A stretch of 64,000 nucleotides of DNA, taken from Saprospiraceae bacterium (lineage in GTDB: Bacteria; Bacteroidota; Bacteroidia; Chitinophagales; Saprospiraceae). This document shows positions 29,863-51,829 of the stretch, in pieces. Below the pieces are notes generated by a model. The model was not told the origin of the DNA. It did not search any database and saw only the letters and a list, made by a program, of their open reading frames with translations. The DNA lies in assembly GCA_029212405.1 (NCBI GenBank), contig JARGNR010000005.1:2621-66620 (forward strand), in the 5' to 3' direction. The position numbers were made by a program, and so were the translations under genes. The first letter of the stretch is position 1. The number at the start of each line of letters is the position of its first letter.

Positions 29863-30738
29863 TTATTTCCCAAGTGCCTTCAACATGGTCTCGCCAATTT
29901 CTGCTGGCGAATTCACAACGTGAATTCCATGTTCGCCCATGATTCTCATTTTAGCCTCTGCGGTATCATCTTCGCCTCCTACTATTGCACCAGCATGCCC
30001 CATCGTTCTTCCCTTAGGAGCTGTTTGACCTGCAATAAACCCAACAACAGGTTTCTTGTTTCCAGTAGAGCTGATATACTCTGCTGCAAGCGCTTCATAG
30101 TTACCACCGATCTCACCAATCATTACAATAGCATCCGTTTCTGGATCTTCCATTAGCAACTTTACCGCCTCTCTCGTAGGAGTTCCTACAATAGGATCTC
30201 CACCAATTCCAATAGCTGTAGAAATTCCAAGACCAGCTTTTACTATTTGGTCAGCAGCCTCATATGTTAACGTTCCTGATTTGGAAACAATACCTATTCT
30301 ACCTTTTTTAAAGACAAACCCCGGCATAATTCCCACTTTCGCTTCGTCTGGTGTAATAACTCCAGGACAATTAGGTCCTACTAATGTGCAGTCATATTTT
30401 TCCAAATATGCTTTCACTTTCACCATATCTTGAACAGGGATTCCTTCCGTAATACAAATGATTACTTTGATACCTGCTTCTGCTGCTTCCATTACTGCAT
30501 CTCCTGCAAATCTAGGAGGTACAAATATTATACTTGTATCAGCACCTACCTTTTGTACCGCTTCGGATACAGAATTAAATACTGGCTTTCCTAAATGCTC
30601 TTGTCCACCTTTACCAGGTGTTACTCCTCCAACAACGTTGGTTTTATAATCAATCATTTGACCAGCGTGAAAACTTCCTTCTTTCCCAGTAAATCCTTGA
30701 ACTATAATTTTCGAGTCTTTATTGACTAATACACTCAT
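29863..30738 (-). CDS. sucD: succinate--CoA ligase subunit alpha
   Basis: 291 aa. [22 protein letters not shown] and the phospho-His loop MGHAGAIV. Confidence 0.95.
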
Positions 30739-30740
30739 TT

Positions 30741-31052
30741 TTACTTTTTTTCTATTACAATTACATCTTCATTTTCCTTATGCATGAGGTATTTTTCTCT
30801 TGCATATTTCTCCTTATTTTCCTCGATTTCTTTCTTTTCCGCTAAAGCTTCAACAATTTTTTCTTCGTATTCTGCTTTTGTAGCTTCAAGATTTGCAATG
30901 TTATCCTTCAAATTTATATTTGTCGGAATCCCATTCTTATCGAAAAATAACATCCACACTAAAAAAGCAAATGTCACAACAACATACTTGTTCAATAATG
31001 AAGATTTTGAAAAGGTGAAATAGGATGATTGTAGTTTTCCTTTCTTACCCAT
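30741..31052 (-). CDS. septum formation initiator family protein (FtsB/DivIC-like)
   Basis: 103 aa with one N-terminal TM segment followed by a coiled coil. Sits directly downstream of eno. Confidence 0.6.
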
Positions 31053-31095
31053 AAGATTGTAGTTTTCTTAAATAAAGGTAAATATACAAAATTGA

Positions 31096-32388
<1,293 letters not shown>

Positions 32389-33498
32389 TTATTTTTTCTT
32401 TAGTAATGCGATAAAATCATCAAATAAATACCTCGAATCATGAGGACCTGGCGATGATTCTGGATGATATTGTACAGAGAAAGCATCTTTTCCAATTACT
32501 TTGATTCCTTCAATAGTACCATCATTTAAGTTTTCATGAGTAATCTCTACCTTGTCTAAATTGGCATGGACTGCATCTGGACTTACCCCAAAACCATGAT
32601 TTTGACTTGTAATTTCACACTTGCCGGTAATTTTATTGATTACAGGGTGATTGATCCCTCTATGACCATGATGCATTTTGTAGGTGGGAATATCGTGAGC
32701 TAAGGCCAAAATTTGGTGCCCTAAGCAAATTCCAAACATCGGTTTATCATCTTTCAACAATTCTTTCACCGTCTCAATGGCATAATCCATAGCCGCAGGA
32801 TCTCCTGGGCCATTAGATAAGAAATAACCATCTGGATTATATGCTCTTATTTCGTCTGCTGTCGATTTTGCAGGGAAGACCTTCAGTGAACACCCTCTCG
32901 CTACAAAACAGTCTAGAATATTTTTCTTTGTACCAAAATCTAAAACGGCTACTTTATATGCTTCGTTGTTCTTTCCATACTCATAAGTAGCATTGGTGCT
33001 GACTTTCGAAGCCAATTCCAATCCATCCATAGAGGGTACTTTCTTCAATTTTTCAGCTAATGAATCTTTGTCAAAATCATCGGTGGAAATGATGCAATTC
33101 ATCGCACCTTTATCTCTTATTTGTTTTACTATGGATCTAGTATCTACATCGTATATCCCGACAATATTCTCTTTTTCAAAATAAGACTGGATATCACTAT
33201 CCGCCGTCATTCTAGAATACTCATTGGTAAAATTCTTACAAACTAAGCCTGCGATTTGGACTCTTTCGGATTCTGTATCTAGATTTGCGGTACCATAATT
33301 TCCAATATGTGCATTGGTCGTAACCATAATTTGTCCGAAATAACTGGGATCGGTAAATACTTCTTGATACCCTGTCATCCCTGTATTGAAACAAATTTCT
33401 CCTGTGGCTTCACCTTTGGCGCCTGCGGCTTTACCTTCAAAAAATGTTCCGTCTTCTAATAGTAAAACTGCCTTATTGGACTGGGAATTTTCAACCAT
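32389..33498 (-). CDS. carA: carbamoyl-phosphate synthase small (glutaminase) subunit
   Basis: Start re-called to MVENSQSNKAVLLLEDGTFFEGKA (ATG at 33498). GATase active site GICLGHQ plus an HPE triad member. Confidence 0.9.
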   Translation of the reverse strand: MVENSQSNKAVLLLEDGTFFEGKAAGAKGEATGEICFNTGMTGYQEVFTDPSYFGQIMVTTNAHIGNYGTANLDTESERVQIAGLVCKNFTNEYSRMTADSDIQSYFEKENIVGIYDVDTRSIVKQIRDKGAMNCIISTDDFDKDSLAEKLKKVPSMDGLELASKVSTNATYEYGKNNEAYKVAVLDFGTKKNILDCFVARGCSLKVFPAKSTADEIRAYNPDGYFLSNGPGDPAAMDYAIETVKELLKDDKPMFGICLGHQILALAHDIPTYKMHHGHRGINHPVINKITGKCEITSQNHGFGVSPDAVHANLDKVEITHENLNDGTIEGIKVIGKDAFSVQYHPESSPGPHDSRYLFDDFIALLKKK

Positions 33499-33523
33499 TG
33501 CTCGTCTTTTTGAATTCGACCGC

Positions 33524-33531
33524 AAATATAG
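33524..33531 (-). promoter_or_regulatory. candidate Bacteroidetes -7 promoter box TATATTTG upstream of carA
   Basis: The minus strand reads TATATTTG, a perfect TAnnTTTG match, 26-33 nt upstream of the re-called carA ATG. The -33 region is only TTTC-like. Confidence 0.35.
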
Positions 33532-33943
33532 CAAAATGATTTAATGTGTATTGAAAATTCATAATCTTTATTGTATATCAAAAATTGCACAATTGATTCA
33601 TATTAGAAGAGGAAAATTACAACATATCTTTTTGAGAGAAGTAAATCATAAAAACAGAAAAAAGGTGCATTTTATTTAATTTAATTTCTCCTGAAATGGA
33701 GGTATTATATTCAAAATAAAATGAAATAATAACCAAAATGAATAGCCTGAATTCCAGATTATTAGGATGGATTAAATATTCCATTTAAAGACAGGTTATG
33801 GCTCCAGTGTGACGAGCTTCGAAGAAGAACCCATTCAGATTCATGCAGCAATATCACCAAATTTATTCAAGGCGAAAATTTTCGTTGTCATTAATAATAA
33901 TCGATAATAAACAATTTAGAGAGAATAAAATCATGAGGTTCAA

Positions 33944-34058: not shown

Positions 34059-34997
34059 TTAATTTTTAATAAACTTTTTCACCTCTCTATTTTCCAGTCC
34101 AGTAAACTGAATAAAGTACATGCCTGGACTGAATTCTTCAACATTGATGTTTAATTCAGAATCCTTTCCAATTTTCTTTTCCAACATGAGTTGTCCAGAA
34201 GCACTATAAATTTCAAGTTTGTGATATAGCAAATCGGAATTTAATTCTATCATTAAATCGTTGAGCACCGGGTTTGGGTTTATTTTCACTTCGTTTGTCT
34301 CTCCATAAACATATCTGGTATTGGACGCATCATCCATACCTTCGTAATTGGCATTTTCTCCTGAATAATATACCCATTCAAGTGTTCCTGTCTGATCAAA
34401 ACTAAATAAAAATAATATGTCATCATCTTCAATCACGTTCTGTTCACTTACTAGATATGGAGAAGTGCCAGTCAACAAAATATTGTCGGTTTCCTGATTG
34501 GTCGTTTCTAAGATTGAGGGTAAAATATCGTCCAGAATTGTACTTGTGACATTAGTCCGTATATCAAATGTATTATCTTTTAGTATGCCATCATCTTCAT
34601 CATCATTGTATCCAATAAGCATGACGGCACCTACGTGAGCAGGTAAAGCAACTACTTCATGGCAGAAAGTTTTACCCTTAAAACGTTTACATTTCTTTAT
34701 TTCAAAACAAATTTCAGCTGAACATCCATCCGCATTGGTTACCGTCAAACAGTACATACCTTTGGGTAAATCATTGATCATGTTTACTAGATCAGAATTT
34801 GTAAATGTTGTACTTACTGGTCCAGTTAAGACATAGGAGTAAGGTCCGTTGCTATTATCATCTAAGGTAATAGTTATGGATCCATCTGCGGGGCCTGTTG
34901 CATGATTTATTGTTATTGTGATATCTGAGCAAAAGCCAGATGTTAATGAAGCAATCATTATAACAATTGCCATTATATTTTTATATATTATTTTCAT
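34059..34997 (-). CDS. T9SS-sorted surface protein with an SprB-type repeat
   Basis: Start re-called to MKIIYKNIMAIVIMIASL (ATG at 34997, ATGA overlap with the upstream stop). SprB-like GPADGSITITL..GPYSYVL...GMYCLTVTNADGC. C-terminal sorting domain KINPNPVLNDLMIEL...GMYFIQF. Confidence 0.6.
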   Translation of the reverse strand: MKIIYKNIMAIVIMIASLTSGFCSDITITINHATGPADGSITITLDDNSNGPYSYVLTGPVSTTFTNSDLVNMINDLPKGMYCLTVTNADGCSAEICFEIKKCKRFKGKTFCHEVVALPAHVGAVMLIGYNDDEDDGILKDNTFDIRTNVTSTILDDILPSILETTNQETDNILLTGTSPYLVSEQNVIEDDDILFLFSFDQTGTLEWVYYSGENANYEGMDDASNTRYVYGETNEVKINPNPVLNDLMIELNSDLLYHKLEIYSASGQLMLEKKIGKDSELNINVEEFSPGMYFIQFTGLENREVKKFIKN

Positions 34998-35662
34998 TTC
35001 ATTGAGTTTAAATGTGATTTTAAAATAGCCAATTGGTTTTGAGAAATACAATCGTATTGCATGTAATCGTTCAGAATAGTTTCAGCTATACCATTACTTT
35101 TCACTGAGTTTACGGCAGCAAAAATTAGGTTGTCCACTTTGTCCTGATATGTTTCGTCGCATATCTTTTCATTGAGATAATCAAAATAAATCATCGATGG
35201 ATTCTTCATTAAAAACAGAAAAACGGGATAATTAAATAATTCTTCGAATTGACCTTCTTCTGGTTCAAAAATGAATGTATTGATATTTTCTATCAACTGT
35301 TCTAAGCCATACTGATGTTTACTAATGACACTGTAAATACTATCTCTTGCATTTAGCGAAATTTTAGGTGACAATGAATACTCCCATAATTCGTCGATGT
35401 TTTTTCTTATTTTGACATCGATTGAATCCAAATTTGGAAATTTGTGCTTAGTAGTTCTTCTCGAATATAAAATTGATTTGAGTTTTCTAATTTTAGAGAC
35501 AATATCAATCAATTCTGCATCACTTAATGATTTGTGAGCTCTCAAAGCATTCAAAGAATCAATACTTTGTGTTATCTGCTCTTTAGACAACTTACTGACT
35601 TCTTGACATAATAGGTGCTTAAAAGGAAGAACAAATAATATCAGGAATAATAATTTCTTCAT
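34994..35662 (-). CDS. hypothetical secreted helical protein
   Basis: 222 aa with a signal peptide (LLFLILFVLPFKHLLCQ). Begins 1 nt after the upstream gene and overlaps the downstream gene by 4 nt. Confidence 0.45.
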   Translation of the reverse strand: MKKLLFLILFVLPFKHLLCQEVSKLSKEQITQSIDSLNALRAHKSLSDAELIDIVSKIRKLKSILYSRRTTKHKFPNLDSIDVKIRKNIDELWEYSLSPKISLNARDSIYSVISKHQYGLEQLIENINTFIFEPEEGQFEELFNYPVFLFLMKNPSMIYFDYLNEKICDETYQDKVDNLIFAAVNSVKSNGIAETILNDYMQYDCISQNQLAILKSHLNSMK

Positions 35663-35663: not shown

Positions 35664-37232
35664 TTAGAATGAGTTTAAATTGATGTGCCCCTCTTGAATT
35701 TTGCTTAGTTTTTGATTATTTGATTTGTAGACATCAAATTCTACACTATCCAAATCCTTAAAATCGATACTTCCCTGAGTTATCACTATGCTTAATCCAT
35801 CTGCGCTTCCTACCCAAGAGTCAACACTATTCCAATCCAGAATGGTTCCATTCAAGATACCAGCATTATCTAGCAAAATCCATTGATTTTGAGTCTCTAA
35901 ATAAGTCAATGACCATACTGATGATGTTGCAGTTGCGTTCGCACTTATGTTAAATTCTCCATTTCCTTCAGGGGCAATTCCAAAAGCCGGTCTAACACCA
36001 GTAACACCAGCAATATCATTATCCACTTCCAATTTATTTTCACCCTTTTTAAAGTTGAAAGAAACACTCCATTCTTTGAAAGCCGAAGCTCTTGATCCAA
36101 AAGTATTTTGATCTGGATCGACAATTGGTGGTCTACCTTGAATAGCAACTCTTACAAAATCTTTAAAATTGACACGCTCCATGATAAATGAGAAATCCTC
36201 AAAATATAAAGGTTTGCTTGGTGGATCTTCTACATAAATATAATTATCCGATGGTATAAAATCTTCATCAAAAATAGACGATGTATCATCATTCGGTTTT
36301 TCGTTATCCTGATTACTATCAGATGGAAATTGAAAGCTTGGTAAGTCCGTAATGTCAGTCACACCTTCAACAATAGCTTTTCTCAAACCTTCCTTCTGGC
36401 GAGTCAAATCAAAATTAACAATATCCCCGGCTCCATCAGGGAGTACTTTAAATTCAAATAACATTCTACCTCCAATCGTTTTGTTCTCTGTGCCCCCCTC
36501 GCTTCTATGCTCTCCAAAACCATAAAGTTGTCCATCTGCAGATCTTAGCGTTACATTTACGTGATTTACTAATTTGGAGTAATTAAGATTGGATAATTCA
36601 CCAGACCCTGCTTCAGGAGAATACAGTTTAGTAATATATACATCTTCTACCATGCTCCATACTCCAGTAGCTCTGACCTTATCAATTACTTTCGAATTTT
36701 CATCTAGTAAGTGTAGTTCAATGTCCTGAAGGGAACTACTTTCATTGATAGCTTCAATATAAAGTGTTTTATCTAATTCACTACCGTCAATAACAATTTC
36801 ATTATTCGAATCAAAATTAACCAGCCCTCCCTTTGTCGGAGAAGTCCACATCCGTATATCCCCAGAAATCTTCTTTAGTTTAACCATCGAAACCGTTCCA
36901 CTCTTTTGTCGAACTACAAGTTTCATTAAATCTACTTCATTACGCCCTAAAGCACTCGCAACCACTGATGTCTCCGACAATGAATTGTCTATCAACCCAT
37001 CACCATCAGTATCGTTTTTATTGGCTACGGTTCTCGCACCCACATCGTATTTCTCCCCAGACTCCAGTAATTGTCCTCCTGAGTACTCAGTTCCTGAACT
37101 CCAATCATAAAGTCCATTGTATATGTCTAAAACGACATCGCATTCAAAATTTGCACGAACTACATCTGTCTGTGAATGAGAAAGAGTAATTGCAATAAAA
37201 AATAACACTATAAATGAAATTGATTTTTTCAT
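35664..37232 (-). CDS. hypothetical secreted protein (522 aa) with a thrombospondin-type-3-like Ca-binding motif
   Basis: Signal peptide ending SHSQ. NDTDGDGLIDN motif. No other domain recognised. Confidence 0.5.
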   Translation of the reverse strand: MKKSISFIVLFFIAITLSHSQTDVVRANFECDVVLDIYNGLYDWSSGTEYSGGQLLESGEKYDVGARTVANKNDTDGDGLIDNSLSETSVVASALGRNEVDLMKLVVRQKSGTVSMVKLKKISGDIRMWTSPTKGGLVNFDSNNEIVIDGSELDKTLYIEAINESSSLQDIELHLLDENSKVIDKVRATGVWSMVEDVYITKLYSPEAGSGELSNLNYSKLVNHVNVTLRSADGQLYGFGEHRSEGGTENKTIGGRMLFEFKVLPDGAGDIVNFDLTRQKEGLRKAIVEGVTDITDLPSFQFPSDSNQDNEKPNDDTSSIFDEDFIPSDNYIYVEDPPSKPLYFEDFSFIMERVNFKDFVRVAIQGRPPIVDPDQNTFGSRASAFKEWSVSFNFKKGENKLEVDNDIAGVTGVRPAFGIAPEGNGEFNISANATATSSVWSLTYLETQNQWILLDNAGILNGTILDWNSVDSWVGSADGLSIVITQGSIDFKDLDSVEFDVYKSNNQKLSKIQEGHINLNSF

Positions 37233-37498
37233 AATATACTATTGGTTTAAAAATTATAAAATATGATAGCTTATAAACTGGTTTCAAAGATATTTGAATG
37301 TTGTCCGAAAAAAATGGACATCACCATATCTCTAACAATTTTCCTAATTTTATTGGAAGTTAATATGAGTGGAAAACATTTCACCTTGAAATAAAATTAT
37401 AGAGTTCCAAATTATCGAAACTCTTTATTCAAGAGAACACTACACATATATATCAAACTGACTTATTTAATAATTTTTAGCCTTACTTAGTATTCAGC

Positions 37499-38575
37499 TT
37501 ATTGCCCATCCACCATTCCTCTCATTCCATAAAAGTCTATCGCTTTCTGCTTGAGAGGGTTGGTACTCCATTCACCCCATTCTCCTTTATATGGGTTGTA
37601 ACCACATTTCAGGGGCTTACTTAAAATGTCTTCCGGCTCATCTACATAAGCCCTGCAGTCTGTGCAGATATATCGGAATTCACAGTCTTTACAGACATGG
37701 ATTTTGTCTTTATTAATATTCCAGTATTTTTTAAAGTCTGGATTTTCGACTGCTTCAGTAAGAGTGGTATCTACTATATTCCCAAAGGTCTCTTTCATCG
37801 AAGGGCAGTTTTTAATATTGCCATCTGAGTCTATGGAGATCTTCCGATTGAGACAAGAATTATGATTAAGGGATTCAGTAAACATTTTAATATTGGGATT
37901 TAAACTACCGAAAGTTATCTTTCCACAGGAGTTAATATTTAACTTTTCTTGACTTTGATAAAAAATGTTGTCTTCTTCAAAATAAACAATATCATTGGAT
38001 TCGCAACCAAATGCAGCAATCATCATTATTCTTGGTTCTAAAACGAACAAGCCCTGAATCTCACTTCTTTGTTGCCATCTCACTTTTTTGCACAATATAT
38101 TTATACTTTGAAAAGCAGAATTTTTAAACATTTCCAAAATCTTTTCTAAGTCATCCACCACACAATCAAATAAAACTCTCAACTCCAGAGATTTACAACC
38201 CATCATATTGAGCTCAAAAAGTATTTTTTCAAGTTTATCAGTCTGCCTATCTCCTATTTCAATTATAGCGTTTGATATTGCACCCGGAAAATCCCATTCT
38301 AAAGGCATGGGAATAAAAATGTCTGGACAATCCGAAAAGTGGCCCAAATTATTCAAAACTAGATAGTCCAAAAACTCTTGCAATATTGGCAATTCGTCTT
38401 TTGAAAAGTATTCCACATAACGGGAATGAGGTAAATCTCTAATTTTGTTTAGCGCACCTTCTAGTGCCAACGGAAATTTATAAACTTCATTAAATTGCAA
38501 ATCGCAAATAGCTATTTCTTGAGCGCCTTTTACCACCTTACAGTTTTCAAACAATCGAAATATTTTATTATTCAC
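37499..38575 (-). CDS. SPASM-domain peptide maturase lacking the radical-SAM CxxxCxxC motif (the 'grasp-with-spasm' SPASM partner type)
   Basis: GTG start 2 nt after the preceding stop. The C-terminus has the full 7-Cys SPASM pattern C-x10-G-x4-C ... CKDCEFRYICTDC ... C. No CxxxCxxC occurs anywhere in the 358 aa. Confidence 0.75.
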   Translation of the reverse strand: MNNKIFRLFENCKVVKGAQEIAICDLQFNEVYKFPLALEGALNKIRDLPHSRYVEYFSKDELPILQEFLDYLVLNNLGHFSDCPDIFIPMPLEWDFPGAISNAIIEIGDRQTDKLEKILFELNMMGCKSLELRVLFDCVVDDLEKILEMFKNSAFQSINILCKKVRWQQRSEIQGLFVLEPRIMMIAAFGCESNDIVYFEEDNIFYQSQEKLNINSCGKITFGSLNPNIKMFTESLNHNSCLNRKISIDSDGNIKNCPSMKETFGNIVDTTLTEAVENPDFKKYWNINKDKIHVCKDCEFRYICTDCRAYVDEPEDILSKPLKCGYNPYKGEWGEWSTNPLKQKAIDFYGMRGMVDGQ

Positions 38576-38577
38576 CT

Positions 38578-38757
38578 TTACAATTTTACAATTTGAGAAA
38601 TTTCTTTGTAAAACCTCTCAACATAGAATCCAGGTGTTCCGAATTTATCACAATTGACTCCCTTGGGCTTCGAGTTGTTCTTTTTTACTTTAAAATTTGT
38701 AGTATACTTTAAGGGAATGTACTTTTCCCAACTAAGCTTGTTGACATTATTTTCCAT
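38578..38757 (-). CDS. unannotated 59-aa basic ORF between the ATP-grasp and SPASM genes
   Basis: Hand translation gives MENNVNKLSWEKYIPLKYTTNFKVKKNNSKPKGVNCDKFGTPGFYVERFYKEISQIVKL. The ATG is 3 nt after the ATP-grasp stop, and its TAA is 2 nt before the SPASM GTG. It is one codon below the ORF-track cutoff. Confidence 0.45.
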   Translation of the reverse strand: MENNVNKLSWEKYIPLKYTTNFKVKKNNSKPKGVNCDKFGTPGFYVERFYKEISQIVKL

Positions 38758-38760
38758 ATG

Positions 38761-39630
38761 CTATATTACATTTTTTGCAATTTCCCTATCTATTTGATAA
38801 TTACATGACTTAATTAAGAAATCATATTGTCCATTAGGATTGATTTCCAGAAAATACCAAATACCATCATTGATTATAAAATCAATTGATCCCGTTTTGA
38901 AACCAGTTATAGCCTTAAATTTTCGTGTAGATTCCAAAACATTTTGCGGAACTCGAATTGGTACTTCTCTTCTTATTTTCACGTTCCATATATCTGTAGT
39001 ATGGTCTTCATCTTTGACCACAAATGCCATAGCCCAAAATTTGTCATGAAAGAAAAACATCCGCACTTCGACCTCTCTTTTAATGCATTGTTGAAAGAAA
39101 GTAGGATAGAAATTCTCTTCTAAATGTGCGACATCTTCCTCTTCTATCAAAGATGCCCTAAACGCCATATCATTTTGGCCTTCGATAATATTATGTGGTG
39201 CGCTCAAAGGTTTTGTGATAACCCTAAAGCCATTATCTAAGAACTTTAAAAGTTCGCTTTTCTGAGTAGTTAGTAAATATGCCGGTATTGAATAACCAGA
39301 CTCAGATGCTTTCTTCAACATCAATATTCTAGAGGGCTCTTCAAATTTTCCGGTTCCAATAAATTGCTCTTTATTCGCACTTTCAAAGAATTCATACCAA
39401 TACGCCCTTAATTCCTTATATAGATATTTATGCATCAAGCTTTTTTCAGCTGGAACAGGCAATGAAAACTTACGACTATAGATTATCGATTTATCGTCAA
39501 TTGGCAGTTTGAATTCAGGAAAATTCATCTGATCCAGACAATATCTTTTTGCTGGTTTATCATAATAAACTAACCACTCTTGTAATCTATCACAAGAATA
39601 ATCCCTAGAAATAGTTAAAATAATTAGCAT
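38761..39630 (-). CDS. ATP-grasp ribosomal peptide maturase (the 'grasp-with-spasm' ATP-grasp type)
   Basis: 289 aa. ATP-grasp C-terminal signature GSIDFIINDGIWYFLEINPNGQYDF. Adjacent to the SPASM gene and in a cluster with a GG-leader peptide. Confidence 0.75.
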   Translation of the reverse strand: MLIILTISRDYSCDRLQEWLVYYDKPAKRYCLDQMNFPEFKLPIDDKSIIYSRKFSLPVPAEKSLMHKYLYKELRAYWYEFFESANKEQFIGTGKFEEPSRILMLKKASESGYSIPAYLLTTQKSELLKFLDNGFRVITKPLSAPHNIIEGQNDMAFRASLIEEEDVAHLEENFYPTFFQQCIKREVEVRMFFFHDKFWAMAFVVKDEDHTTDIWNVKIRREVPIRVPQNVLESTRKFKAITGFKTGSIDFIINDGIWYFLEINPNGQYDFLIKSCNYQIDREIAKNVI

Positions 39631-39660: not shown

Positions 39661-40575
39661 TTACATCCTTATACCTACTTTTTTAGCATAATTGGCAATT
39701 GGTGAAAGTCCAATTTGAAACCTTAAAGAATCCACATTACTTACATCCTCAATTGGATAAAATATATTTCTTTTTTCCTCTTTTGAGAATATTACTTGTG
39801 TTCCATACTTCTGTGGAACTCCTTTTTTTACACATACCTTATCGTACATATAGCTCAATTGATGTGGATTGAAAAGCTGTCGCAATTCGTCAAAATAAGT
39901 ATCCATAAATGAAGGCTCATGATGTAAGAATAAAACAAATAATGCCGACACTCCAAGTGGTCCAATTTTTTCATATTTGGGAACACCATTCTTTTCAATC
40001 ATCTCATTTATTCTTGTCTTGTGATCCTTACAAAGTTCTAACCATGGTAAATTTCTTGCTTCTTCCATTAAATGATTCAAACCTGATTTATTTAATTTCT
40101 CCACAAACTCTTCATCTAATCTCAACTCTAACTCAACGGTTCTAAATTGTTGATCCTCAATATGCATCAATACCAACTCTTTGAGAAGAACAGAGTCTAT
40201 ATCAAGCTTCTTTTTGGAATCATTTCGAATTCCTGTACAATAACTAGTGATGCTTTCAAATTTGATAAATTTATCATCAAAGTAACTATCAGCACACATC
40301 CGATCCTTGGTCCTTGGTTTTAAACCATTAAATTTAGATTCAAAAACCTTGTACTCACCTTCCGCATAAAGAATTTTCAATACTAAATAATTGCCAAATG
40401 ACTGCGTAAAGATGGTGTCTTTATATATGCTGCTGTTGTATTTAACTAATCCCTCAGAATACTTATTTTGATCCAACAAATCATTAAGATCATGAATAAA
40501 ATGCCATTCATCAACTTTAGTTTTTTGAGACAATACCGTTGTTGATATCAACAGAAAAACAATAACCTTAAGCAT
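39661..40575 (-). CDS. secreted hypothetical protein; the C-terminal half resembles a DUF6624-like helical domain (from memory, unverified)
   Basis: Signal peptide MLKVIVFLLISTTVLSQ. Motifs HIEDQQFR, NGVPKYEKIGPLGVSALFVLFLHH and QKYGTQ. Begins 3 nt after the upstream gene. Confidence 0.5.
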   Translation of the reverse strand: MLKVIVFLLISTTVLSQKTKVDEWHFIHDLNDLLDQNKYSEGLVKYNSSIYKDTIFTQSFGNYLVLKILYAEGEYKVFESKFNGLKPRTKDRMCADSYFDDKFIKFESITSYCTGIRNDSKKKLDIDSVLLKELVLMHIEDQQFRTVELELRLDEEFVEKLNKSGLNHLMEEARNLPWLELCKDHKTRINEMIEKNGVPKYEKIGPLGVSALFVLFLHHEPSFMDTYFDELRQLFNPHQLSYMYDKVCVKKGVPQKYGTQVIFSKEEKRNIFYPIEDVSNVDSLRFQIGLSPIANYAKKVGIRM

Positions 40576-40578: not shown

Positions 40579-41259
40579 CTAATTATTTTTAACAGTTGCA
40601 GATGTACCATGATTCTTCAAAGAACTAATCTCTGTGGTCAAATCTCCAAATTGATTAAACACTAAATATCTTGGATAAGCGTGTATGTCAAACTCCTCTA
40701 TAATTTCAGACTTTGGTATTGCGAATACGTCACAATCAATATTGTGCTCTTTTAGTATTGCTTCAATATCGTCTTGTTTACTGAATGTAACTACCTTTAC
40801 TGAGTAACTGCTGAAATCTGATTCCATAAGTCTTTTCAAATGTGGCAAGTCCGTTTTACAATGAACACATTCTTTAAACATGAACATTAAAAGCGATTGG
40901 CCGTGTTGATCCTCACCGATATACTTGCTGATCAGAGTCTTTGACATATCACTATCTCCAAATAATTTATTCTTTGCAAACCTGGTTTTAATAATACTTT
41001 GATTCAGGAAGTTCTTTGGCGCCTTTTTTTCTTCTAGTATTGGCATACTCATTCCACCACCATTATCTTTGATCCCCTGCATCTGAAAGTATCTAATTAT
41101 CGGACCACTATCCTCCTTTTTAAACATTTCTATCGCCTCATTAGCGTTAAATACTCTTCCTTCAAGATCAATCACTTTGTCTAATGAAAGCTGCATATCT
41201 TGGGCGAAGACTATGTTGCATAATAGAATTACCAGAACTATATTAAATAGTTTATTCAT
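40579..41259 (-). CDS. periplasmic TlpA/ResA-like thiol-disulfide oxidoreductase
   Basis: Signal peptide. Thioredoxin-fold CxxC in LLMFMFKECVHCKTDLPHL. Overlaps the upstream gene by 8 nt. Confidence 0.65.
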   Translation of the reverse strand: MNKLFNIVLVILLCNIVFAQDMQLSLDKVIDLEGRVFNANEAIEMFKKEDSGPIIRYFQMQGIKDNGGGMSMPILEEKKAPKNFLNQSIIKTRFAKNKLFGDSDMSKTLISKYIGEDQHGQSLLMFMFKECVHCKTDLPHLKRLMESDFSSYSVKVVTFSKQDDIEAILKEHNIDCDVFAIPKSEIIEEFDIHAYPRYLVFNQFGDLTTEISSLKNHGTSATVKNN

Positions 41260-42724
41260 ATGTATTATTTAAAGCAATTTTAATAAAATTCGGATTAATG
41301 TAGGACGGAACCAATCTATTGTTAATAATTAAAACTGGAAAGTAACCTCTCGTAAATTCAGAAATACCTTTCAAATTTTTAAAGTGTACATCTTTTCTAA
41401 TAATAAACTCATTCCCATTCTGTAATATATCTTTATCCTCAGACCATGTAGAAAAGATCTCATAAGAATCTTTAAAATTTCTTTCTTCTATAGCCTTACA
41501 TAATTGCGCATAATAGCGATTATTTTTTTTAGTCTCTTTAAAATTAACGAATACTTCCAATTTCATTGAGTCTGTAATGTTAAGAGCATTCAACATATGA
41601 AGCAACAGCTCTTTACAATGTTTACATCCTAAATTTAAAAATATTTTTACAGAAATTTGGTCATCAGTTTCATTCAGATCTGCTTGCTCCATTGGGGAAC
41701 TAATGTTCATAACGTTCCCAAAATTAGTCCAAGTATAAAATTGCTGAATATTGTATTCTTTCATTTTTTGTTCGTTATTTTCCTTTGAGACAATCTGAAA
41801 TGCAAAAACATACGACATCGCCATGAAAAACATAACATTCAATATTCCCAAATTATTCAATATAGCATAATCTACTATACCAATATCGTACAAAACATAC
41901 GTATTGATAATAACTGTGAAAGCTGCAATAATTAAGCATATTCGACAAAACTCCTTGTATATAAACAGCTGAAAAAACAATGACAACCCAACAATAAAAA
42001 AAGAGGTTACAACTATAATAATTCCAGCAATATTCGCTATTGGAAAACATAGAAGTGAATACAGACACCAAAAAATCGATGACGCTACAGCCATTATTTT
42101 TAAGTCTAGTCCATAGATATTGCTTTCTAAAATGTCATCACAACTGTCCTTCTCCCCACATATCTTATTTATTATGTTAAGACTTCTATCATTATTTCTG
42201 GATCTAAAAAAGAGTAAGATTGGCAGTAAGCTACAAATGGCAAATATTTGTAAAAAAAGTGTTCCTTGAAAATAGGAACACACCAACAATAAAATAATTA
42301 TTATGGCCAGACTGAATTTCAAAATATTGTCCGGCAAAAATGAATATTTGGTTCCAAAATCATTTGAACTAACTAAAGTAGTCCTATCAATATCTTCAAC
42401 TAGTATTTTTACAGGTATAAATTTATTTTTTAAACTAAGATTCAACTCAACTTCTTTATTTGTGGATATAGAATAAAGCATTACCGTATTACCGTTTTTA
42501 TAAGAAATGTAATACTCGCCTAAGTCATCAATAAGTATAGCCGTGACATCCCCCACCAACTCTAAATCAGCCTCGACAATCATGCACTTAACATTATGAC
42601 TGACTAATATTTTGTAGAGGTCTATAATAGATTCTACTCTTATACCGGATTCTGCATTATAACTTATATCAACGTTATAAATTTTGTATATTTTCTTTAC
42701 TATTTTTTCAGTGTCAATTGGCAT
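41252..42724 (-). CDS. VKOR-family membrane oxidoreductase with an N-terminal soluble domain and a C-terminal thioredoxin-like domain
   Basis: Start re-called to the ATG at 42724 (MPIDTEK); the ORF-track TTG start lies inside the terminator T-run. VKOR loop Cys pair CGEKDSC followed by ILESNIYG. TM CxxC in EFCRICLI. C-terminal thioredoxin-like LNLGCKHCKELL. Confidence 0.7.
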   Translation of the reverse strand: MPIDTEKIVKKIYKIYNVDISYNAESGIRVESIIDLYKILVSHNVKCMIVEADLELVGDVTAILIDDLGEYYISYKNGNTVMLYSISTNKEVELNLSLKNKFIPVKILVEDIDRTTLVSSNDFGTKYSFLPDNILKFSLAIIIILLLVCSYFQGTLFLQIFAICSLLPILLFFRSRNNDRSLNIINKICGEKDSCDDILESNIYGLDLKIMAVASSIFWCLYSLLCFPIANIAGIIIVVTSFFIVGLSLFFQLFIYKEFCRICLIIAAFTVIINTYVLYDIGIVDYAILNNLGILNVMFFMAMSYVFAFQIVSKENNEQKMKEYNIQQFYTWTNFGNVMNISSPMEQADLNETDDQISVKIFLNLGCKHCKELLLHMLNALNITDSMKLEVFVNFKETKKNNRYYAQLCKAIEERNFKDSYEIFSTWSEDKDILQNGNEFIIRKDVHFKNLKGISEFTRGYFPVLIINNRLVPSYINPNFIKIALNNTYE

Positions 42725-42742
42725 GTAATATTTTCTTTGATA

Positions 42743-42782
42743 CAAAAAAAAGAGGCAAAGAAGAAATGTTCTTTTTGCCTCT
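42743..42782 (-). terminator. intrinsic terminator/attenuator immediately after the precursor gene
   Basis: The minus-strand transcript has a 9-bp perfect stem agaggcaaa / tttgcctct (extendable with mismatches), followed by a T8 run. It lies between the precursor stop (42802) and the VKOR start (42724). Confidence 0.6.
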
Positions 42783-42801: not shown

Positions 42802-42990
42802 TTACGGTCTACATTCTCCACTGATGTCGTATGTACCTGTACCATCACTATACCATCCTTCTGCACAATCATATACATCAACGGTAGCTCCGGTAGCACC
42901 AGATTTTGAATACTCTCTTGCTCCTCCAGTTAGTTTGTTCAATTCTTTTTTTGTAACTTTTAAAGCTGAAAACTGATTTAATTTTAACAT
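42802..42990 (-). CDS. RiPP/bacteriocin precursor peptide with a Bacteroidetes-type double-glycine leader
   Basis: Re-called from the 91-aa ORF 42802..43077. Sequence: MLKLNQFSALKVTKKELNKLTGG / AREYSKSGATGATVDVYDCAEGWYSDGTGTYDISGECRP. The leader ends in the ..L.K.EL..L.GG motif. An alternative ATG lies at 43020. Confidence 0.7.
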   Translation of the reverse strand: MLKLNQFSALKVTKKELNKLTGGAREYSKSGATGATVDVYDCAEGWYSDGTGTYDISGECRP

Positions 42991-43045: not shown

Positions 43046-43357
43046 TCATACGCATGATATTGTAAATGTAGGAACATGTTGTCCTAAAAAACTGGACACA
43101 ACTGATCTTCCTCCATATATTTTTGATTTATTTACGAAACCTATTGCCAAAGTTTTATCCTCTACATAATAGTAGCTTTTTCTACATGTACAATACTCGA
43201 TTTCTGCTCCCATACATTTCATAATATCCAAGATTTCATATATAGTAGATTTGGAAAGATTAGTTCGTCTAGCTAAATCCCTAGCAGATCCAGTGGCCTT
43301 CATTTTAATTAGCTGATCTATACGTTCTATAACTTGAATTTTTTCAAAAAACCTCAT
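43046..43357 (-). CDS. small winged-helix/HTH transcriptional regulator
   Basis: 103 aa. HTH segment GSARDLARRTNLSKSTIYEILDIM. Confidence 0.55.
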   Translation of the reverse strand: MRFFEKIQVIERIDQLIKMKATGSARDLARRTNLSKSTIYEILDIMKCMGAEIEYCTCRKSYYYVEDKTLAIGFVNKSKIYGGRSVVSSFLGQHVPTFTISCV

Positions 43358-43400: not shown

Positions 43401-44729
43401 TTAATGCTTTTTAAGTATTGAAAGAAATTGATTAAATATCCGTGAAAAAACAGTTTTATTTTCCGTTATCACCTCTGCCGTTACTGACATTTGAGGCTTA
43501 TATTGAATGGTATCTTGATAATCTGTGATAATCGTATTAGGAATCGGAATCTTCAATTCATACATTAATCTCCCATCTCTATTTTCTTCAGGAATTTTAC
43601 TAACAACACTAACCTTAGAAGTTAACACCCCATATTCTTTATAGGGATACCCATCAAACTTTATGATTACATCCTGACCTTTCTCCACCTTACCAATATT
43701 TACACCTGGGAATTCAGCAGTCACATAATTGATTTGATTATCAGTAGGTATTATATACCCTATGGCTTGACCCTGTTTTATATTTTTTTGATCAGAAACA
43801 CCTTTTAAATAGGTGACTTTCCCATCAATTGGAGCCTCAACAATATAGGTTTTATTCCAATTCTCTATGGATGTTTTTATTCTCGAAATTATTTCGGAAA
43901 TACTAAATGTATAATTTTGAAGTGCTTTTGATCTTTTTTGCTTTAAGTTTAGTTTTTCCATCTCTAACTGGTCTATTCTAATTCTATTTTGAATTAGAAT
44001 ATTATTCATTCCTTCAAATTGTCTCTCTTTTTGCAACAATACTGCATGAAATTTCTCAAACTCAGCTCTACTAATTGCACCTTCTATCTCTAATTTCTTG
44101 TTTCGTGAATAATCCACCCTAGACAGTTCAAGTTCTTTTCCATATATCTCCATTTCTTTATTATGTGAACCGTTAAGTACTCCTATTTTTTGAATTTCTC
44201 GATTAATATTATTGATTTGCTGAAAGACTATATCGTCTCTTAACGTTTGTTGTAATTCATTAAATCGTAATTCTAACGAAGCATAATCATTTTGTAATGA
44301 ACCCAACTGCAAACCTTTCACAAAGTCTAGCTGAAGCATCATTTTTATATCTTCAATGGTGTTATATTTTTTGATCCAATGTTCTAATTGTATGATTTGA
44401 GTCTGATCAGTAGTATTGTTTATAAATAAAACCGCTTCACCTTTTTTTACATTGCATCCCTCATGAGCATATATTCGCTCAATATAACCTGTTGATCTAC
44501 TTACCAACTCAATAGGTGGTGCATCAGATGTTAACACTCCTTCCCCTATAAGTTTATCAGGATATTCAAAATAACAAGACCCTGTAAGAAGTATAGAAGT
44601 CACGATAGCTACCATAGTAATTCCAGACCTTAATAACCACCCAGGTGGGTTTCCAATAAGGTCGTGTATTTGTGACTGGGCTGTGGTGTTTATTTCTGAA
44701 TTTGTATGTGTACTTTGAGGTATAGGCAT
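43401..44729 (-). CDS. HlyD-family secretion adaptor (membrane fusion protein)
   Basis: N-terminal TM segment, lipoyl-like hairpin (VKKGEAVLFI), long coiled coil and a beta-barrel C-terminus. Sits directly downstream of the C39 ABC exporter. Confidence 0.8.
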   Translation of the reverse strand: MPIPQSTHTNSEINTTAQSQIHDLIGNPPGWLLRSGITMVAIVTSILLTGSCYFEYPDKLIGEGVLTSDAPPIELVSRSTGYIERIYAHEGCNVKKGEAVLFINNTTDQTQIIQLEHWIKKYNTIEDIKMMLQLDFVKGLQLGSLQNDYASLELRFNELQQTLRDDIVFQQINNINREIQKIGVLNGSHNKEMEIYGKELELSRVDYSRNKKLEIEGAISRAEFEKFHAVLLQKERQFEGMNNILIQNRIRIDQLEMEKLNLKQKRSKALQNYTFSISEIISRIKTSIENWNKTYIVEAPIDGKVTYLKGVSDQKNIKQGQAIGYIIPTDNQINYVTAEFPGVNIGKVEKGQDVIIKFDGYPYKEYGVLTSKVSVVSKIPEENRDGRLMYELKIPIPNTIITDYQDTIQYKPQMSVTAEVITENKTVFSRIFNQFLSILKKH

Positions 44730-44844: not shown

Positions 44845-47034
44845 CTAACTCCCCAATTCCAATTGATTTTTAACTAATTCAAAATATTTTCCTTTCTTTT
44901 TAACTAATTTCTTGTGCTTTCCTACCTCAACAATTTCACCATTCTCTAACACAACTATTTGATCTGCATTCTTTACAGTGCTTAGTCTATGTGCCACTAC
45001 TATTGCAGTTCTACCATATAAAAACTTCTCCAAATTATTCATAATCACTCTCTCATTACTAGCATCTAAAGAATTTGTTGCTTCATCAAAAAATAGAAAT
45101 TCAGGGTTTTTGTACATTGCTCTCGCAATAAATAATCGCTGTTTCTGGCCTTGACTTATTCCATTCCCTTTAGGCCCAATCATCGTATTCAGCCCCAAAG
45201 GCAAATCTTTAATAAAATCCATAATGTTAGCTTGAACAGATGCTGCTAAAATCTTACTGGTATTCGCTGTATCATCACTCTCTGAAATATTATTTGCAAT
45301 TGTATCAGAAAATATAAAGCCTTCTTGCATTACAACTCCACATTGTTGCCTCCATATTTTCTTATAAATTGTATCAAGATCTTGTGCTCCCACCTTAATG
45401 ACACCTCTACTAGGCTTATAAAAGCCCAATAAAAGCTTGATTAGTGTGGTCTTTCCACTTCCACTAGAACCAACAATTGCAGTGGTCTTTCCTCGTGGAA
45501 TACACAAACTAATATCCTTTAACACCTCTTCCGAAATTGGAGTATAACGAAAACTCAAATTTTTAATCAAAATATCACCCTCCGGTATCACACTAATCTT
45601 TTGTTCATCCTCTTTTTCTTCATTCTCGGCACCATGAATTTCGGAAAGTCGTTCCAAGCTAATTTTAGCATCCTGCGCTGATCTAATAAAGCCAATCATT
45701 TGTTGTAGTGGTCCGTTTAATTGACCAATAATGTATTGTACAGCCAACATCATCCCTAAGGTCATTGAACCTTCTAGAACAAGTTTCGCGGCAAAGAATG
45801 TGATGACGATATCTTTCAACTGATTAATAGACAATGCTCCCGCATCTTGGTATTGAGATATACTCAATGATTTCATTTGTGTACGAAATAGCTTTGCTTG
45901 AATTCCCGCCCACTTCCATCGTCGTTTGAGTTGACTGCCCTGAAGTTTAATTTCTGACATACCTTGGATAATCTCAATGAGAGAATCTTGATTATCAGAA
46001 AATTGCTGAAATGCACGATAATCAACCTCTTTACGCATTCTTAGGAAAAAGAAAATCCACCCAACGTATAACATGGATGAAAATATGAAAATGAAAAAAA
46101 TAGTAGTGCTATATATTGCCAACACCACACCAAAAACTACTAAATTGGTTATAGACAATAAAACACTAAGACTTGAGTTAGTCAAGAATGACTCGATTCG
46201 TTTATGATCCCCTATTCGCTGAAGTAAATCACCCGTATTTTTTGAATCAAAAAAACCCAAAGGCAAGTGCATTAACTTTAAAAGAAAATCAGCTATTAAA
46301 CTGACATTTATACGAATACTAATATGTAACAATATCCAACTCTGAATGAAGCGAACCATAGTAGAACCAACAAACAATGCAAGTTGTCCAGCCAGTACCA
46401 AATAAATAAAATTTAAGTTCTTAGTATCTATTCCAATATCAACTAAACTCTGTGTTAAAAAGGGAAATATCAATTGAAAAACTGTTCCTAATAATAAACC
46501 TATTATCAACTGGAACATCAACTTTCGATGTGGTTTTAAATACTCAAAAAGAAATCCAAAACCTTTTTTCTCATTATCTTCTAAATCCCGTTTATGAAAA
46601 CCTATGGTTGGTTCAAGCAATAAAGCAACACCTTGATTGTTATCCGTAATCCATGACTTCTCAAACTCCTCTATTGATAACTTATGCTTGGAACTTGCAG
46701 GATCAGAAATATAAACATGAGATTTCGTTATCTTATATATAACAACAAAATGATTTTGATTCCAATGTCCAATACACGGCAATGGAGCTTCAGACAAAGA
46801 AGGCATATCTTTTTTTCCAGAAGTAGGTATCTTGACAGCCAAAGTTCTCAAGCCAATAAGTTCAGCTGCTTCACTTATCCCTTTCAAACTTACACCAGCC
46901 TTATCGATATAACACTTCTCTCTTAAAAATGGAAGCGAGTATGTTTTTCCGTGTGCCTTTGCAATCATACGCAAGCAGGTAGGGCCACAATCCATTGAAT
47001 CCAACTGGCGGTAATGTTTGAATTTATCTATCAT
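44845..47034 (-). CDS. peptidase C39 domain-containing ABC transporter (double-glycine leader cleavage and export)
   Basis: N-terminal C39 domain with catalytic Cys in QLDSMDCGPTCLRM. Six-TM domain. Walker A GSSGSGKTT, signature ISQGQKQR, Walker B FLFFDEATNSLD. Confidence 0.9.
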   Translation of the reverse strand: MIDKFKHYRQLDSMDCGPTCLRMIAKAHGKTYSLPFLREKCYIDKAGVSLKGISEAAELIGLRTLAVKIPTSGKKDMPSLSEAPLPCIGHWNQNHFVVIYKITKSHVYISDPASSKHKLSIEEFEKSWITDNNQGVALLLEPTIGFHKRDLEDNEKKGFGFLFEYLKPHRKLMFQLIIGLLLGTVFQLIFPFLTQSLVDIGIDTKNLNFIYLVLAGQLALFVGSTMVRFIQSWILLHISIRINVSLIADFLLKLMHLPLGFFDSKNTGDLLQRIGDHKRIESFLTNSSLSVLLSITNLVVFGVVLAIYSTTIFFIFIFSSMLYVGWIFFFLRMRKEVDYRAFQQFSDNQDSLIEIIQGMSEIKLQGSQLKRRWKWAGIQAKLFRTQMKSLSISQYQDAGALSINQLKDIVITFFAAKLVLEGSMTLGMMLAVQYIIGQLNGPLQQMIGFIRSAQDAKISLERLSEIHGAENEEKEDEQKISVIPEGDILIKNLSFRYTPISEEVLKDISLCIPRGKTTAIVGSSGSGKTTLIKLLLGFYKPSRGVIKVGAQDLDTIYKKIWRQQCGVVMQEGFIFSDTIANNISESDDTANTSKILAASVQANIMDFIKDLPLGLNTMIGPKGNGISQGQKQRLFIARAMYKNPEFLFFDEATNSLDASNERVIMNNLEKFLYGRTAIVVAHRLSTVKNADQIVVLENGEIVEVGKHKKLVKKKGKYFELVKNQLELGS

Positions 47035-47495: not shown

Positions 47496-47969
47496 TTATT
47501 CTTCCTCATTAGAAGCTACTGGTGGAGTGTTGGCACTTGATTTACCTTTTCCTCCTCTTCTGCTTCTTTTGCCCGATTTAGCAGCTGTCTTACCACCAGA
47601 AACATAATCTGTGTTAAAATCAACCAACTCAATCATTGCCATTTCAGCAGAATCACTTTTTCTAGCTCCTGTTCGTATAATACGTACATAACCACCTGGT
47701 CTATCAGCAATCTTATCTGCTACTACATCAAACAATTCTTTCACAACTTCCTTATTCATTAATCTAGAAAATACAACTCTTCTTGAGTGCGTTGTGTTTG
47801 TCTTAGATTTTGTGATAAGTGGCTCCACAAATACTCTTAAAGCTTTAGCCTTTGCTAGAGTAGTTGTAATTCTTTTGTGTGTAATAAGAGCCCCAGCCAA
47901 TGATTTCAACAATGCCTTTCTGTGCCCTTTCTTTCTCTTAAGGTGATTAAATTTCTTTCCGTGTCTCAT
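47496..47969 (-). CDS. rplQ: 50S ribosomal protein L17 (with a long basic/Gly-rich C-terminal tail)
   Basis: [21 protein letters not shown]... Last gene of the alpha operon. Confidence 0.95.
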
Positions 47970-48100
47970 TTCTTTTATGATTTACGTCCTGCCACTAACT
48001 ATTTACCTCTTTTACAGCTTTTAGAGAAATAAATAATCGTTTAGCAAATGATATAATTATATCCTGACCATTGTCAGAGCTGTGTGATACTAAAATTCAA

Positions 48101-49099
48101 TTAATCTTCGTCCAACTTATATTTAGACAAGTCCATTCCAAAAGTAAGGCCTTTATTCTGTAGCAACTCTTCGATCTCTACTAATGACTTCTTACCAAAG
48201 TTTCTGAACTTCAATAACTCATGAGTATCGTATCTAACCATCTCTCCTAAAGAGTTGATCTTAGCCGCTTTCAGACAGTTATACGCTCTTACAGACAAAT
48301 CAAGATCTTCAAGAGAAGTTTTAAGTAATTTACGCATATGTAATATGTGCTCATCTACTATATTCTCTTCTCTACTACTTGAATCATTAAATGTGATATT
48401 CTCATCTGTGATCAACATCAAATGTTGAATCATAATTCTAGAAGCTTCTTTAACCGCTTCTTCAGGATGAATCGTACCATCCGTTTTAACCTCAATAGTT
48501 AACTTCTCGTAATCTGTTCTCTGTCCAACTCTGGTATTTTCAATCTTATACGCTACTTTCTTAATAGGTGTATAGATTGCATCAACAGGAATTACTCCAA
48601 TCGGAGCATCTTTTGGCAAATTTTCATCAGCAGGAACATATCCTCTTCCTTTTGTAATAGTAAACTCGATTTCTAAGTTTACAGAGGGCTCCATTTGACA
48701 AATCAATAATTCAGGGTTCATCACCTTGAATATATTTGTACTAGATTCTATGTCACCAGCTAAAAATTGCTCTTTACCAGTTATAGTTAAATATATTTTT
48801 TCTTCACTATTGCTCTCATCAACAATCATTGGCTTTAATCTTACCTGCTTTAGGTTAAGAATAATGTCAACAACGTCTTGTACTACTCCTTGAATAGTTG
48901 AAAATTCGTGATCAACTCCTGCAATTCTAACCGCAGAAATTGAATACCCTTCTAGAGAGGACAATAATATTCTTCGTAGTGAATTTCCTATGGTTTGGCC
49001 AAAACCTGGCTCCAATGGTTTAAATTCAAAAGTACCGTCAAAATCATCTGCTTTTTGTAATAGTATTTTGTCAGGCTTCTGAAAATTTAGAATACTCAT
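48101..49099 (-). CDS. rpoA: DNA-directed RNA polymerase subunit alpha
   Basis: 332 aa. LEPGFGQTIGNSLRRILLSS and the C-terminal-domain motif LSVRAYNCLK. Confidence 0.95.
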   Translation of the reverse strand: MSILNFQKPDKILLQKADDFDGTFEFKPLEPGFGQTIGNSLRRILLSSLEGYSISAVRIAGVDHEFSTIQGVVQDVVDIILNLKQVRLKPMIVDESNSEEKIYLTITGKEQFLAGDIESSTNIFKVMNPELLICQMEPSVNLEIEFTITKGRGYVPADENLPKDAPIGVIPVDAIYTPIKKVAYKIENTRVGQRTDYEKLTIEVKTDGTIHPEEAVKEASRIMIQHLMLITDENITFNDSSSREENIVDEHILHMRKLLKTSLEDLDLSVRAYNCLKAAKINSLGEMVRYDTHELLKFRNFGKKSLVEIEELLQNKGLTFGMDLSKYKLDED

Positions 49100-49145
49100 T
49101 CTATCGTATTTTATGTATGAAAAGGAAATTAAATAAACAGGAATA

Positions 49146-51824: not shown

Positions 51825-51829
51825 ATGTA

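Follow-up and report, generated by a model that had tools for sequence, protein, structure and literature searches.

What does a SPASM-domain protein do beside an ATP-grasp peptide ligase when it carries no motif for cleaving S-adenosylmethionine (SAM)? The question is raised by a 64,000-nucleotide (nt) stretch of a Saprospiraceae bacterium genome (GenBank assembly GCA_029212405.1, contig JARGNR010000005.1), here called the window, which contains the following gene.

37499..38575, minus strand: gwsS, encoding a grasp-with-spasm SPASM domain peptide maturase (358 amino acids (aa), GTG start; match to TIGR04193)

The reading we favor, with a probability of roughly 45%, is that GwsS takes part in a graspetide assembly line without radical chemistry, as a recruitment or partner subunit. 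New here are a domain reading based on structure models (RRE, truncated barrel, eight-Cys SPASM) and sequence comparisons that point to loss of the radical-SAM site throughout the family, and to co-conservation of the SPASM half with the tail of a small LPL-family protein encoded just upstream.

GwsS belongs to a known family. It matched the NCBIfam profile TIGR04193 at 327.7 bits (curated cutoff 175; E 1e-97), over positions 2-342 of 342. The SPASM profile TIGR04085 scored 33.9 bits (cutoff 27), and the Pfam SPASM domain (PF13186), the sole Pfam domain found, scored 28.9 bits (cutoff 21.5). By these matches, the window gene is a member of the already curated GwsS family and no new system. The pairing of an ATP-grasp ligase with a SPASM-only protein likewise has a name, "grasp-with-spasm" (TIGR04192/TIGR04193, genes gwsG/gwsS; both gene names are used in a 2026 preprint). 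In Makarova 2022 this is graspetide "branch 5", and in Carter 2026 probably "group 14". The novelty implied by the original prediction, a set of remarks made from the sequence of this window alone, is therefore gone.

Relatives are numerous. A large protein collection held 4399 of them at E ≤ 1e-5, the nearest only 51% identical to the window protein and several already named as grasp-with-spasm family by the Joint Genome Institute (JGI) or NCBI. Species-representative genomes contained at least 586 gwsS-type loci. All 79 loci that we retrieved (individual loci are given below as L numbers) are from Bacteroidota, namely Saprospiraceae, Chitinophagales, Flavobacteriaceae, Aquimarina, Tenacibaculum and Taibaiella; the hosts include, besides Saprospiraceae, aerobic genera such as Flavobacterium and Aquimarina. 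An identical protein, in the same gene order, was found on a contig of a public read-set assembly (L001), possibly from the same sample as the window.

Cysteines of GwsS lie at positions 12, 24, 83, 127, 138, 162, 191, 217, 241, 257, 295, 298, 304, 307 and 324. Among them are the SPASM motifs C241-x10-G252-x4-C257 and C295-KD-C298-EFRYI-C304-TD-C307, followed by C324. The four-Cys block reads Cx2Cx5Cx2C in 119/119 GwsS family members; the usual SPASM spacing of these four is Cx2Cx5Cx3C, within a seven-Cys pattern that opens with Cx9-15Gx4C and closes with a single Cys. CxxxCxxC was found neither in the protein nor in the six frames of 37200-39000. The GTG of gwsS is the first start after an in-frame stop 15 codons upstream, which rules out an N-terminal extension hiding such a motif. 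A frameshift or sequencing error that conceals it, the refutation foreseen in the original prediction, was rejected as well, the six frames being empty and the relatives likewise lacking CxxxCxxC.

The absence holds across the family. A regular-expression search found CxxxCxxC in 0/120 retrieved relatives, with a loose Cx8CxxC in one. Radical_SAM (PF04055) gave no Pfam match to the window protein even at E ≤ 10, and neither it nor PqqD (PF05402) matched any of 119 aligned family members at E ≤ 0.1; the Pfam SPASM domain matched 113 of the 119. No precomputed Radical_SAM domain was present on any of the relatives listed under the family name in the protein collection. The initial description of a SPASM protein with a seven-Cys pattern and no CxxxCxxC is borne out by these searches, with C217 added as an eighth invariant Cys. 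The proposed check against hidden Markov models also came out as expected (SPASM matched, Radical_SAM did not), and the family-wide lack of motif and Pfam match supports the accompanying view that canonical SAM cleavage is unlikely.

We next turn to the fold. Two AlphaFold (AF2) models were available. Model 1, built from 46 sequences, resolved just the N-terminal two thirds of the protein; its SPASM half had a predicted local distance difference test score (pLDDT) below 50. Model 2 (m6d31ab78e0a3), built from 119 sequences, had a pLDDT of 86.8 and a predicted template modeling score (pTM) of 0.82, with the SPASM half now resolved. The predicted parts of the protein are as follows.

38321..38575, minus strand: RRE-like winged-helix domain, residues 1-85; four strands then three helices, pLDDT > 90
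37946..38275, minus strand: shortened beta/alpha barrel, residues about 101-210; pLDDT about 90-97 in model m6d31ab78e0a3
37604..37927, minus strand: SPASM region, residues 217-324, with eight invariant Cys
37523..37603, minus strand: C-terminal extension, residues 325-351, GYNPY.GEW.EWSTNPLKQKAIDFYGM, hyperconserved

In the model, the four strands and three helices of residues 1-85 agree with a winged-helix fold, which is marked by a three-stranded sheet followed by three helices; at the sequence level, PqqD (PF05402) was matched by 0/119 members. A Foldseek search with model 1 paired this N-terminal domain with the RRE-only structures TbiB1 (5v1v), lasso B1 (6jx3) and PbtF (8t19), at probabilities of 0.99-1.0 and TMt of 0.61-0.69. 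The modeled barrel runs beta1-alpha1-beta2-alpha2-beta3-alpha3-beta4 and then a hairpin. It thus has about four parallel beta/alpha units in residues 101-210, not the (beta/alpha)6 or full barrel of the radical SAM superfamily, and the loop after beta1 is five residues long with zero Cys.

With the whole chain, Foldseek matches in the PDB at E < 1e-2 were just SuiB (5v1q, 5v1s, 5v1t; E 1e-4 to 4e-4) and CteB (5wgg, 5why; probability up to 1.00, TMq 0.40); the next, anSMEcpe, followed at E 1.2e-2. The low whole-chain TM-scores (0.24-0.40) are what a truncated barrel would give. A profile search with the 46-sequence alignment against PDB sequences returned only noise, so that the N-terminal part could not be tied by sequence to any solved radical-SAM enzyme. 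Since the relation to SuiB and CteB escapes sequence profiles, kinship rests on fold and domain order, which indicate, as modeled, that GwsS is a derived relative of RRE-radical SAM-SPASM maturases.

On this model, then, GwsS is no bare SPASM domain: an RRE-like domain of its own and a barrel remnant precede SPASM. The "stand-alone SPASM" of the original prediction does not survive, as the N-terminal 215 aa model confidently as these two domains. Its suggestion of an "RRE substitute" came close, as GwsS appears from the model to bring its own RRE-like domain. The structure prediction proposed there as a check gave, for the monomer, an RRE-like domain, a barrel of about four units without a SAM-cluster loop, and SPASM. 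Because CxxxCxxC is absent and about half of the barrel is gone, canonical SAM cleavage by GwsS, with formation of a 5'-deoxyadenosyl radical, is very unlikely. Part of the literature labels the family radical-SAM, which does not fit the members examined.

What has been kept is the cluster-binding half. Eight Cys (C217, C241, C257, C295, C298, C304, C307 and C324) are invariant in 119/119 members. A phmmer search with residues 206-358 gave a weak alignment to anSMEcpe (E 0.036), in which C257 falls on C276, C295/298/304/307 fall on C317/320/326/330, and C241 lies one position off C261. Going by the anSME structure, we take C241, C257, C307 and probably C217 to be the ligands of auxiliary cluster I, and presumably C295, C298, C304 and C324 serve auxiliary cluster II. 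The eight Cys are predicted to be enough for full ligation of two [4Fe-4S] clusters.

To locate selection, we used the mean majority-residue frequency by region in the 119 aligned sequences. It was 0.45 for the RRE-like domain and lowest, 0.36, for the barrel remnant; it rose to 0.86 for the SPASM core (residues 241-324) and was highest, 0.89, for the C-terminal extension (325-351). Positions conserved at 95% or more fall almost entirely within residues 217-349 (66/70), and many of them are polar. Around the Cys ligands, E234, N239, K245, D249, R301, D306, R308, K320, K323, W333 and W336 are invariant.

Two partner genes lie directly upstream.

38761..39630, minus strand: gwsG-like ATP-grasp peptide ligase, 289 aa (TIGR04192)
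38578..38757, minus strand: LPL-family open reading frame (ORF), 59 aa; no model match

The best match of the window ligase was TIGR04192, at 134.8 bits (cutoff 230; E 4e-39) and just over profile positions 96-316, with its first 66 residues outside the alignment. It lies 183 nt upstream of gwsS on the same strand, with the 59-aa ORF in between. The ATP-grasp gene, placed beside the SPASM gene in the original prediction, is thus not its direct neighbor. ATP-grasp is the next gene upstream of the SPASM gene, leaving aside this small ORF, in 73/75 related loci, with a gap of about 170-340 nt. Median identity across loci was 30% for the ATP-grasp protein versus 42% for the SPASM protein.

The gap is filled by an ORF of 49-95 aa in 75/76 related loci. 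Overlap of this ORF with the gwsS start is frequent and suggests translational coupling; in the window, 2 nt separate its stop from the gwsS GTG. The 59-aa ORF matches no Pfam or NCBIfam model. Two motifs recur in LPL proteins, hPhx(1,2)h in the N-terminal part (58/75) and KPIS[KR] close to the C-terminus (48/75). Their counterparts in the window are YIPLKY and, in the tail, a divergent FYKEISQIV. Within the system, conservation is strongest in two places, the tail motif of LPL and the SPASM half of GwsS. GwsS, the LPL protein and the ATP-grasp ligase are locked in one operon. In Bacteroidetes "branch 5", the LPL family is always upstream of the SPASM gene; its motif resembles the leader motif usually read by ATP-grasp ligases, and branch 5 precursors are without that motif (Makarova 2022). 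A PqqD-like chaperone role has been proposed for the LPL protein (Makarova 2022).

A candidate substrate of these proteins is encoded further upstream.

42802..42990, minus strand: candidate precursor peptide, 62 aa, with a double-glycine (GG) motif; leader MLKLNQFSALKVTKKELNKLTGG, core AREYSKSGATGATVDVYDCAEGWYSDGTGTYDISGECRP

Its leader gave a weak match to TIGR04149 (16.3 bits, below cutoff), and phmmer found a similar leader in L002 (E 2.5e-5). ORFs with a GG leader were sought heuristically in the vicinity of the genes, which produced 50 candidates in 44 loci, a few of them false positives. Many Flavobacterium-type cores have an EF-hand-like loop with the pattern DxNxNGx[WMIL]DxxE, as in DTNGNGRMDPGE and DDNGNGIWDSGE; instances are L028 5653-5853, L064 5278-5535, L078 3420-3617, L044 6290-6469 and L041 5962-6198. 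It may bind calcium or act as a conserved template for ring formation. Cores of the Saprospiraceae type, that of the window included, have [WY]x[YS]SDG in its place.

In the partner role that we favor, the fast-evolving RRE of GwsS would bind the double-glycine leader of the hypervariable precursors, leaders that lack the motif normally recognised by ATP-grasp ligases. The LPL protein, translationally coupled to GwsS, would offer an hPhxxh leader-like motif in trans and so activate the ligase, while its conserved KPISK tail would dock on the hyperconserved Fe-S half of GwsS. ATP-grasp would then make side-chain ester or amide rings, and the C39-ABC/HlyD exporter (listed below) would remove the leader and secrete the product. 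The Fe-S clusters of GwsS may be kept for folding, docking or some redox role. Support for this role comes from the obligate ATP-grasp/LPL partnership, the RRE-like fold and the precedent of MirC, the strictly co-occurring, non-catalytic partner that the rosaritide ATP-grasp ligase MirB requires (Carter 2026); we infer the role from these taken together.

Several observations weigh against it. The Fe-S half is by far the most conserved part of GwsS, though decay would be expected there if the RRE alone were needed. The ATP-grasp ligase is much less conserved (median 30% identity), and docking hardly explains the conservation of the SPASM half. Candidate cores are 4.7% Cys, with at least one Cys in 42/50 and a Cys within the last six residues in 25/50; such enrichment hints at Cys-directed chemistry. 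Finally, every interaction in the partner model is inferred.

These observations lend themselves to a second reading, possible but rather doubtful, in which GwsS is a tailoring enzyme. Its two auxiliary-type [4Fe-4S] clusters would, without SAM, act on the peptide already cyclised by ATP-grasp, in a redox or Cys-directed step (for example thiol oxidation, a crosslink or other two-electron chemistry), with the RRE recruiting the substrate. The extreme conservation of the SPASM core and C-terminal extension (0.86-0.89), the invariant polar residues round the Cys ligands and the far less conserved ATP-grasp all fit an enzyme of this kind, as do the Cys-rich cores. Exactly one Cys is present in seven candidate cores, where an internal disulfide is impossible, and further modification at conserved Cys was expected by Makarova 2022.

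Yet all eight Cys ligands are present, leaving no obvious open iron site for a substrate in either cluster. At least three or four plausible cores are Cys-free (L038, the second precursor of L044, L045 and L068), so that Cys is apparently typical of cores, not universal. For the two Cys of the window's core, the window's two thioredoxin-like CxxC proteins already offer a disulfide route. Moreover, we know of no SPASM domain that is catalytic in the absence of a radical-SAM cluster. That GwsS is the first such protein, performing a SAM-independent and most plausibly Cys-directed modification, is unlikely; if true, it would represent a new class of Fe-S tailoring enzyme for peptides made by ribosomes and modified after translation (RiPPs) and a new graspetide modification.

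Less probable again is a third reading, in which the Fe-S half senses redox state or oxygen, or transfers electrons, and gates or stabilises the ATP-grasp complex, leaving the peptide untouched. Such a role would suit two clusters with predicted full Cys ligation and without a catalytic partner domain, and also the aerobic hosts (Flavobacterium, Aquimarina) and Saprospiraceae, on the assumption that cluster integrity reports redox state. But no regulatory output domain is present, strict operon coupling and a peptide-binding RRE point to a direct role on the peptide, and the idea is purely speculative.

That GwsS is still a canonical radical-SAM enzyme, its motif hidden, replaced by the unconventional ligands C12/C24/C127 or supplied in trans, is largely refuted. 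Makarova 2022 calls the family radical SAM enzymes, and taken separately C127 (96%), C12 (84%) and C24 (72%) are common among the 119 members. Together, however, the three occur in just 69/119, so we rejected a non-canonical cluster there, and the "non-canonical cluster site" listed among the original options is unlikely. A hidden motif is contradicted by the empty six frames, by the identical protein in another assembly, and by the 0/120 relatives (regular expression) and 0/119 members (PF04055) with a match; the barrel of about four units, with its 5-residue beta1 loop, argues the same way. As for a split partner, a regular-expression scan of window ORFs ≥ 150 aa found none with CxxxCxxC. 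Among 45 related loci > 12 kb, an ORF ≥ 200 aa with the motif occurred in one, where it is not radical-SAM-like, leaving 44/45 without. A decaying pseudo-enzyme without function, as the loss of the catalytic motif and half of the barrel might suggest, is the least credible reading of all. It is contradicted by the ORF being intact and by a family of thousands in which the SPASM half is under strong purifying selection, with 8/8 Cys invariant, and the place in the operon is the same in 73/75 loci from several Bacteroidota orders.

Between 47034 and 37499, every gene is on the minus strand. Besides those given above, the genes are as follows.

44845..47034, minus strand: C39-peptidase/ABC (ATP-binding cassette) exporter for double-glycine leaders; TIGR03796 (E 1e-140) and TIGR01193 (E 4e-121), full length, below cutoffs
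43401..44729, minus strand: HlyD-type membrane fusion protein; TIGR01843 (E 9e-34), below cutoff; in 42 related loci
43046..43357, minus strand: small helix-turn-helix (HTH) protein, possible regulator; several weak HTH Pfam matches below cutoff; found by tblastn in 15 related loci
41252..42745, minus strand: 497-aa multi-pass membrane protein with CxxC-type Cys motifs
40579..41259, minus strand: thioredoxin-like protein; CVHC and a hydrophobic, signal-peptide-like N-terminus
39661..40575, minus strand: DUF6624 protein (PF20329, 32.8 bits) with a hydrophobic, signal-peptide-like N-terminus

The C39-ABC exporter was found in 44 related loci, at a median identity of 55%. The 497-aa membrane protein has a Cx5C motif (CGEKDSC), CRIC in a hydrophobic and probably membrane-spanning segment, and a C-terminal CKHC. 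By its Cys motifs only, it resembles a VKOR (vitamin K epoxide reductase)-thioredoxin fusion; Pfam, NCBIfam and PDB sequence searches gave no support. By tblastn, the genes for this protein and the thioredoxin-like protein were matched just in the identical operon of L001 and in none of 79 other loci. The two thioredoxin-like CxxC proteins may form a disulfide between the two Cys of the window's core after export. The window DUF6624 copy had a tblastn relative in 13/80 loci, the identical copy of L001 included. DUF6624 and "cluster 23" are both described as graspetide-associated, and the window protein is probably "cluster 23" of Makarova 2022; DUF6624 has been flagged as a possible undiscovered graspetide biosynthetic enzyme (Carter 2026).

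Directly downstream on the minus strand, 34059-35051 and 35664-37232 hold one protein sorted by the type IX secretion system (Por_Secre_tail, SprB repeat) and one 522-aa protein without a family match, whose N-terminus is hydrophobic and resembles a signal peptide. Further on, ORFs in 29863-33534 (minus) resemble enolase, the carbamoyl-phosphate synthase small subunit and the succinyl-CoA ligase alpha subunit, judged from translations alone. On the other side, 47496-64000 (minus) is a run of short ORFs that starts from ribosomal protein L17 (47496-47969, the sole one scanned) and looks like a ribosomal-protein operon. From its sequence surroundings, the gws cluster looks to be in a chromosomal context with no obvious mobile element; P. 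gingivalis gwsG/gwsS loci are borne on integrative and conjugative elements (2026 preprint).

The family runs to thousands of sequences and, among Bacteroidota graspetide clusters, is universal in one big branch. TIGR04193 is among the most frequent graspetide-associated families in Makarova 2022, where it was treated as a radical SAM enzyme with thioether formation likely. Every member examined lacks the SAM-cleaving site and half of the barrel, so that in its canonical form this prediction is untenable. We found no experimental work on the GwsS family in the literature, and the 2026 survey from the Mitchell lab (Carter 2026) notes SPASM/ATP-grasp co-occurrence only and leaves the family uncharacterised, in line with the initial statement that its biochemical role is unknown. 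The role of an RRE joined to a two-cluster SPASM, with no radical chemistry, would mean either a new kind of recruitment of hypervariable substrates by ATP-grasp ligases or new Fe-S peptide chemistry.

How does the window compare with systems already described? With TIGR04193 and branch 5 it shares the operon position after ATP-grasp and LPL, the eight Cys and the lack of a radical-SAM motif, and nothing essential differs. In detail, it departs from other grasp-with-spasm loci in that its ATP-grasp scores below the TIGR04192 cutoff and its LPL tail reads KEISQ, not KPISK; relative to the 79 other loci, it adds two thioredoxin-like genes. With SuiB (streptide, 5v1q) and CteB (sactipeptide, 5wgg), GwsS has in common the order RRE, barrel, SPASM and the auxiliary-cluster Cys pattern. 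It differs from them in having no CxxxCxxC loop, no Radical_SAM profile match and a barrel of about 4 units where theirs has 6. Without the SAM loop, the radical chemistry that defines SuiB and CteB is not available to GwsS.

The anaerobic sulfatase maturase anSMEcpe (4k37) is the sole PDB sequence match for the SPASM half (E 0.036), and the ligand Cys align. However, anSME has a radical-SAM cluster and no RRE, its spacing is Cx2Cx5Cx3C versus Cx2Cx5Cx2C in GwsS, and the distance from its first ligand down to its second is 6 residues, compared with 24 in GwsS. PqqD/PqqE, the lasso B1 proteins and PbtF provide a parallel for residues 1-85, which have the same fold in the model though no PqqD Pfam match; whereas in PqqD-type systems the RRE serves an active maturase, in GwsS it is fused to a catalytically disabled one. 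MirC resembles GwsS in being strictly co-occurring, tailoring-enzyme-like and a complex partner for an ATP-grasp ligase. This is a functional analogy only, as its fold is unrelated (a PpiC-type chaperone domain) and it has no Fe-S clusters. Lastly, the GeoRSP SPASM domain protein (TIGR04304) is also named as SPASM and not radical SAM/SPASM, but its profile gave just 16.8 bits to the SPASM region of GwsS (cutoff 300), and its genomic context is unlike that of gwsS.

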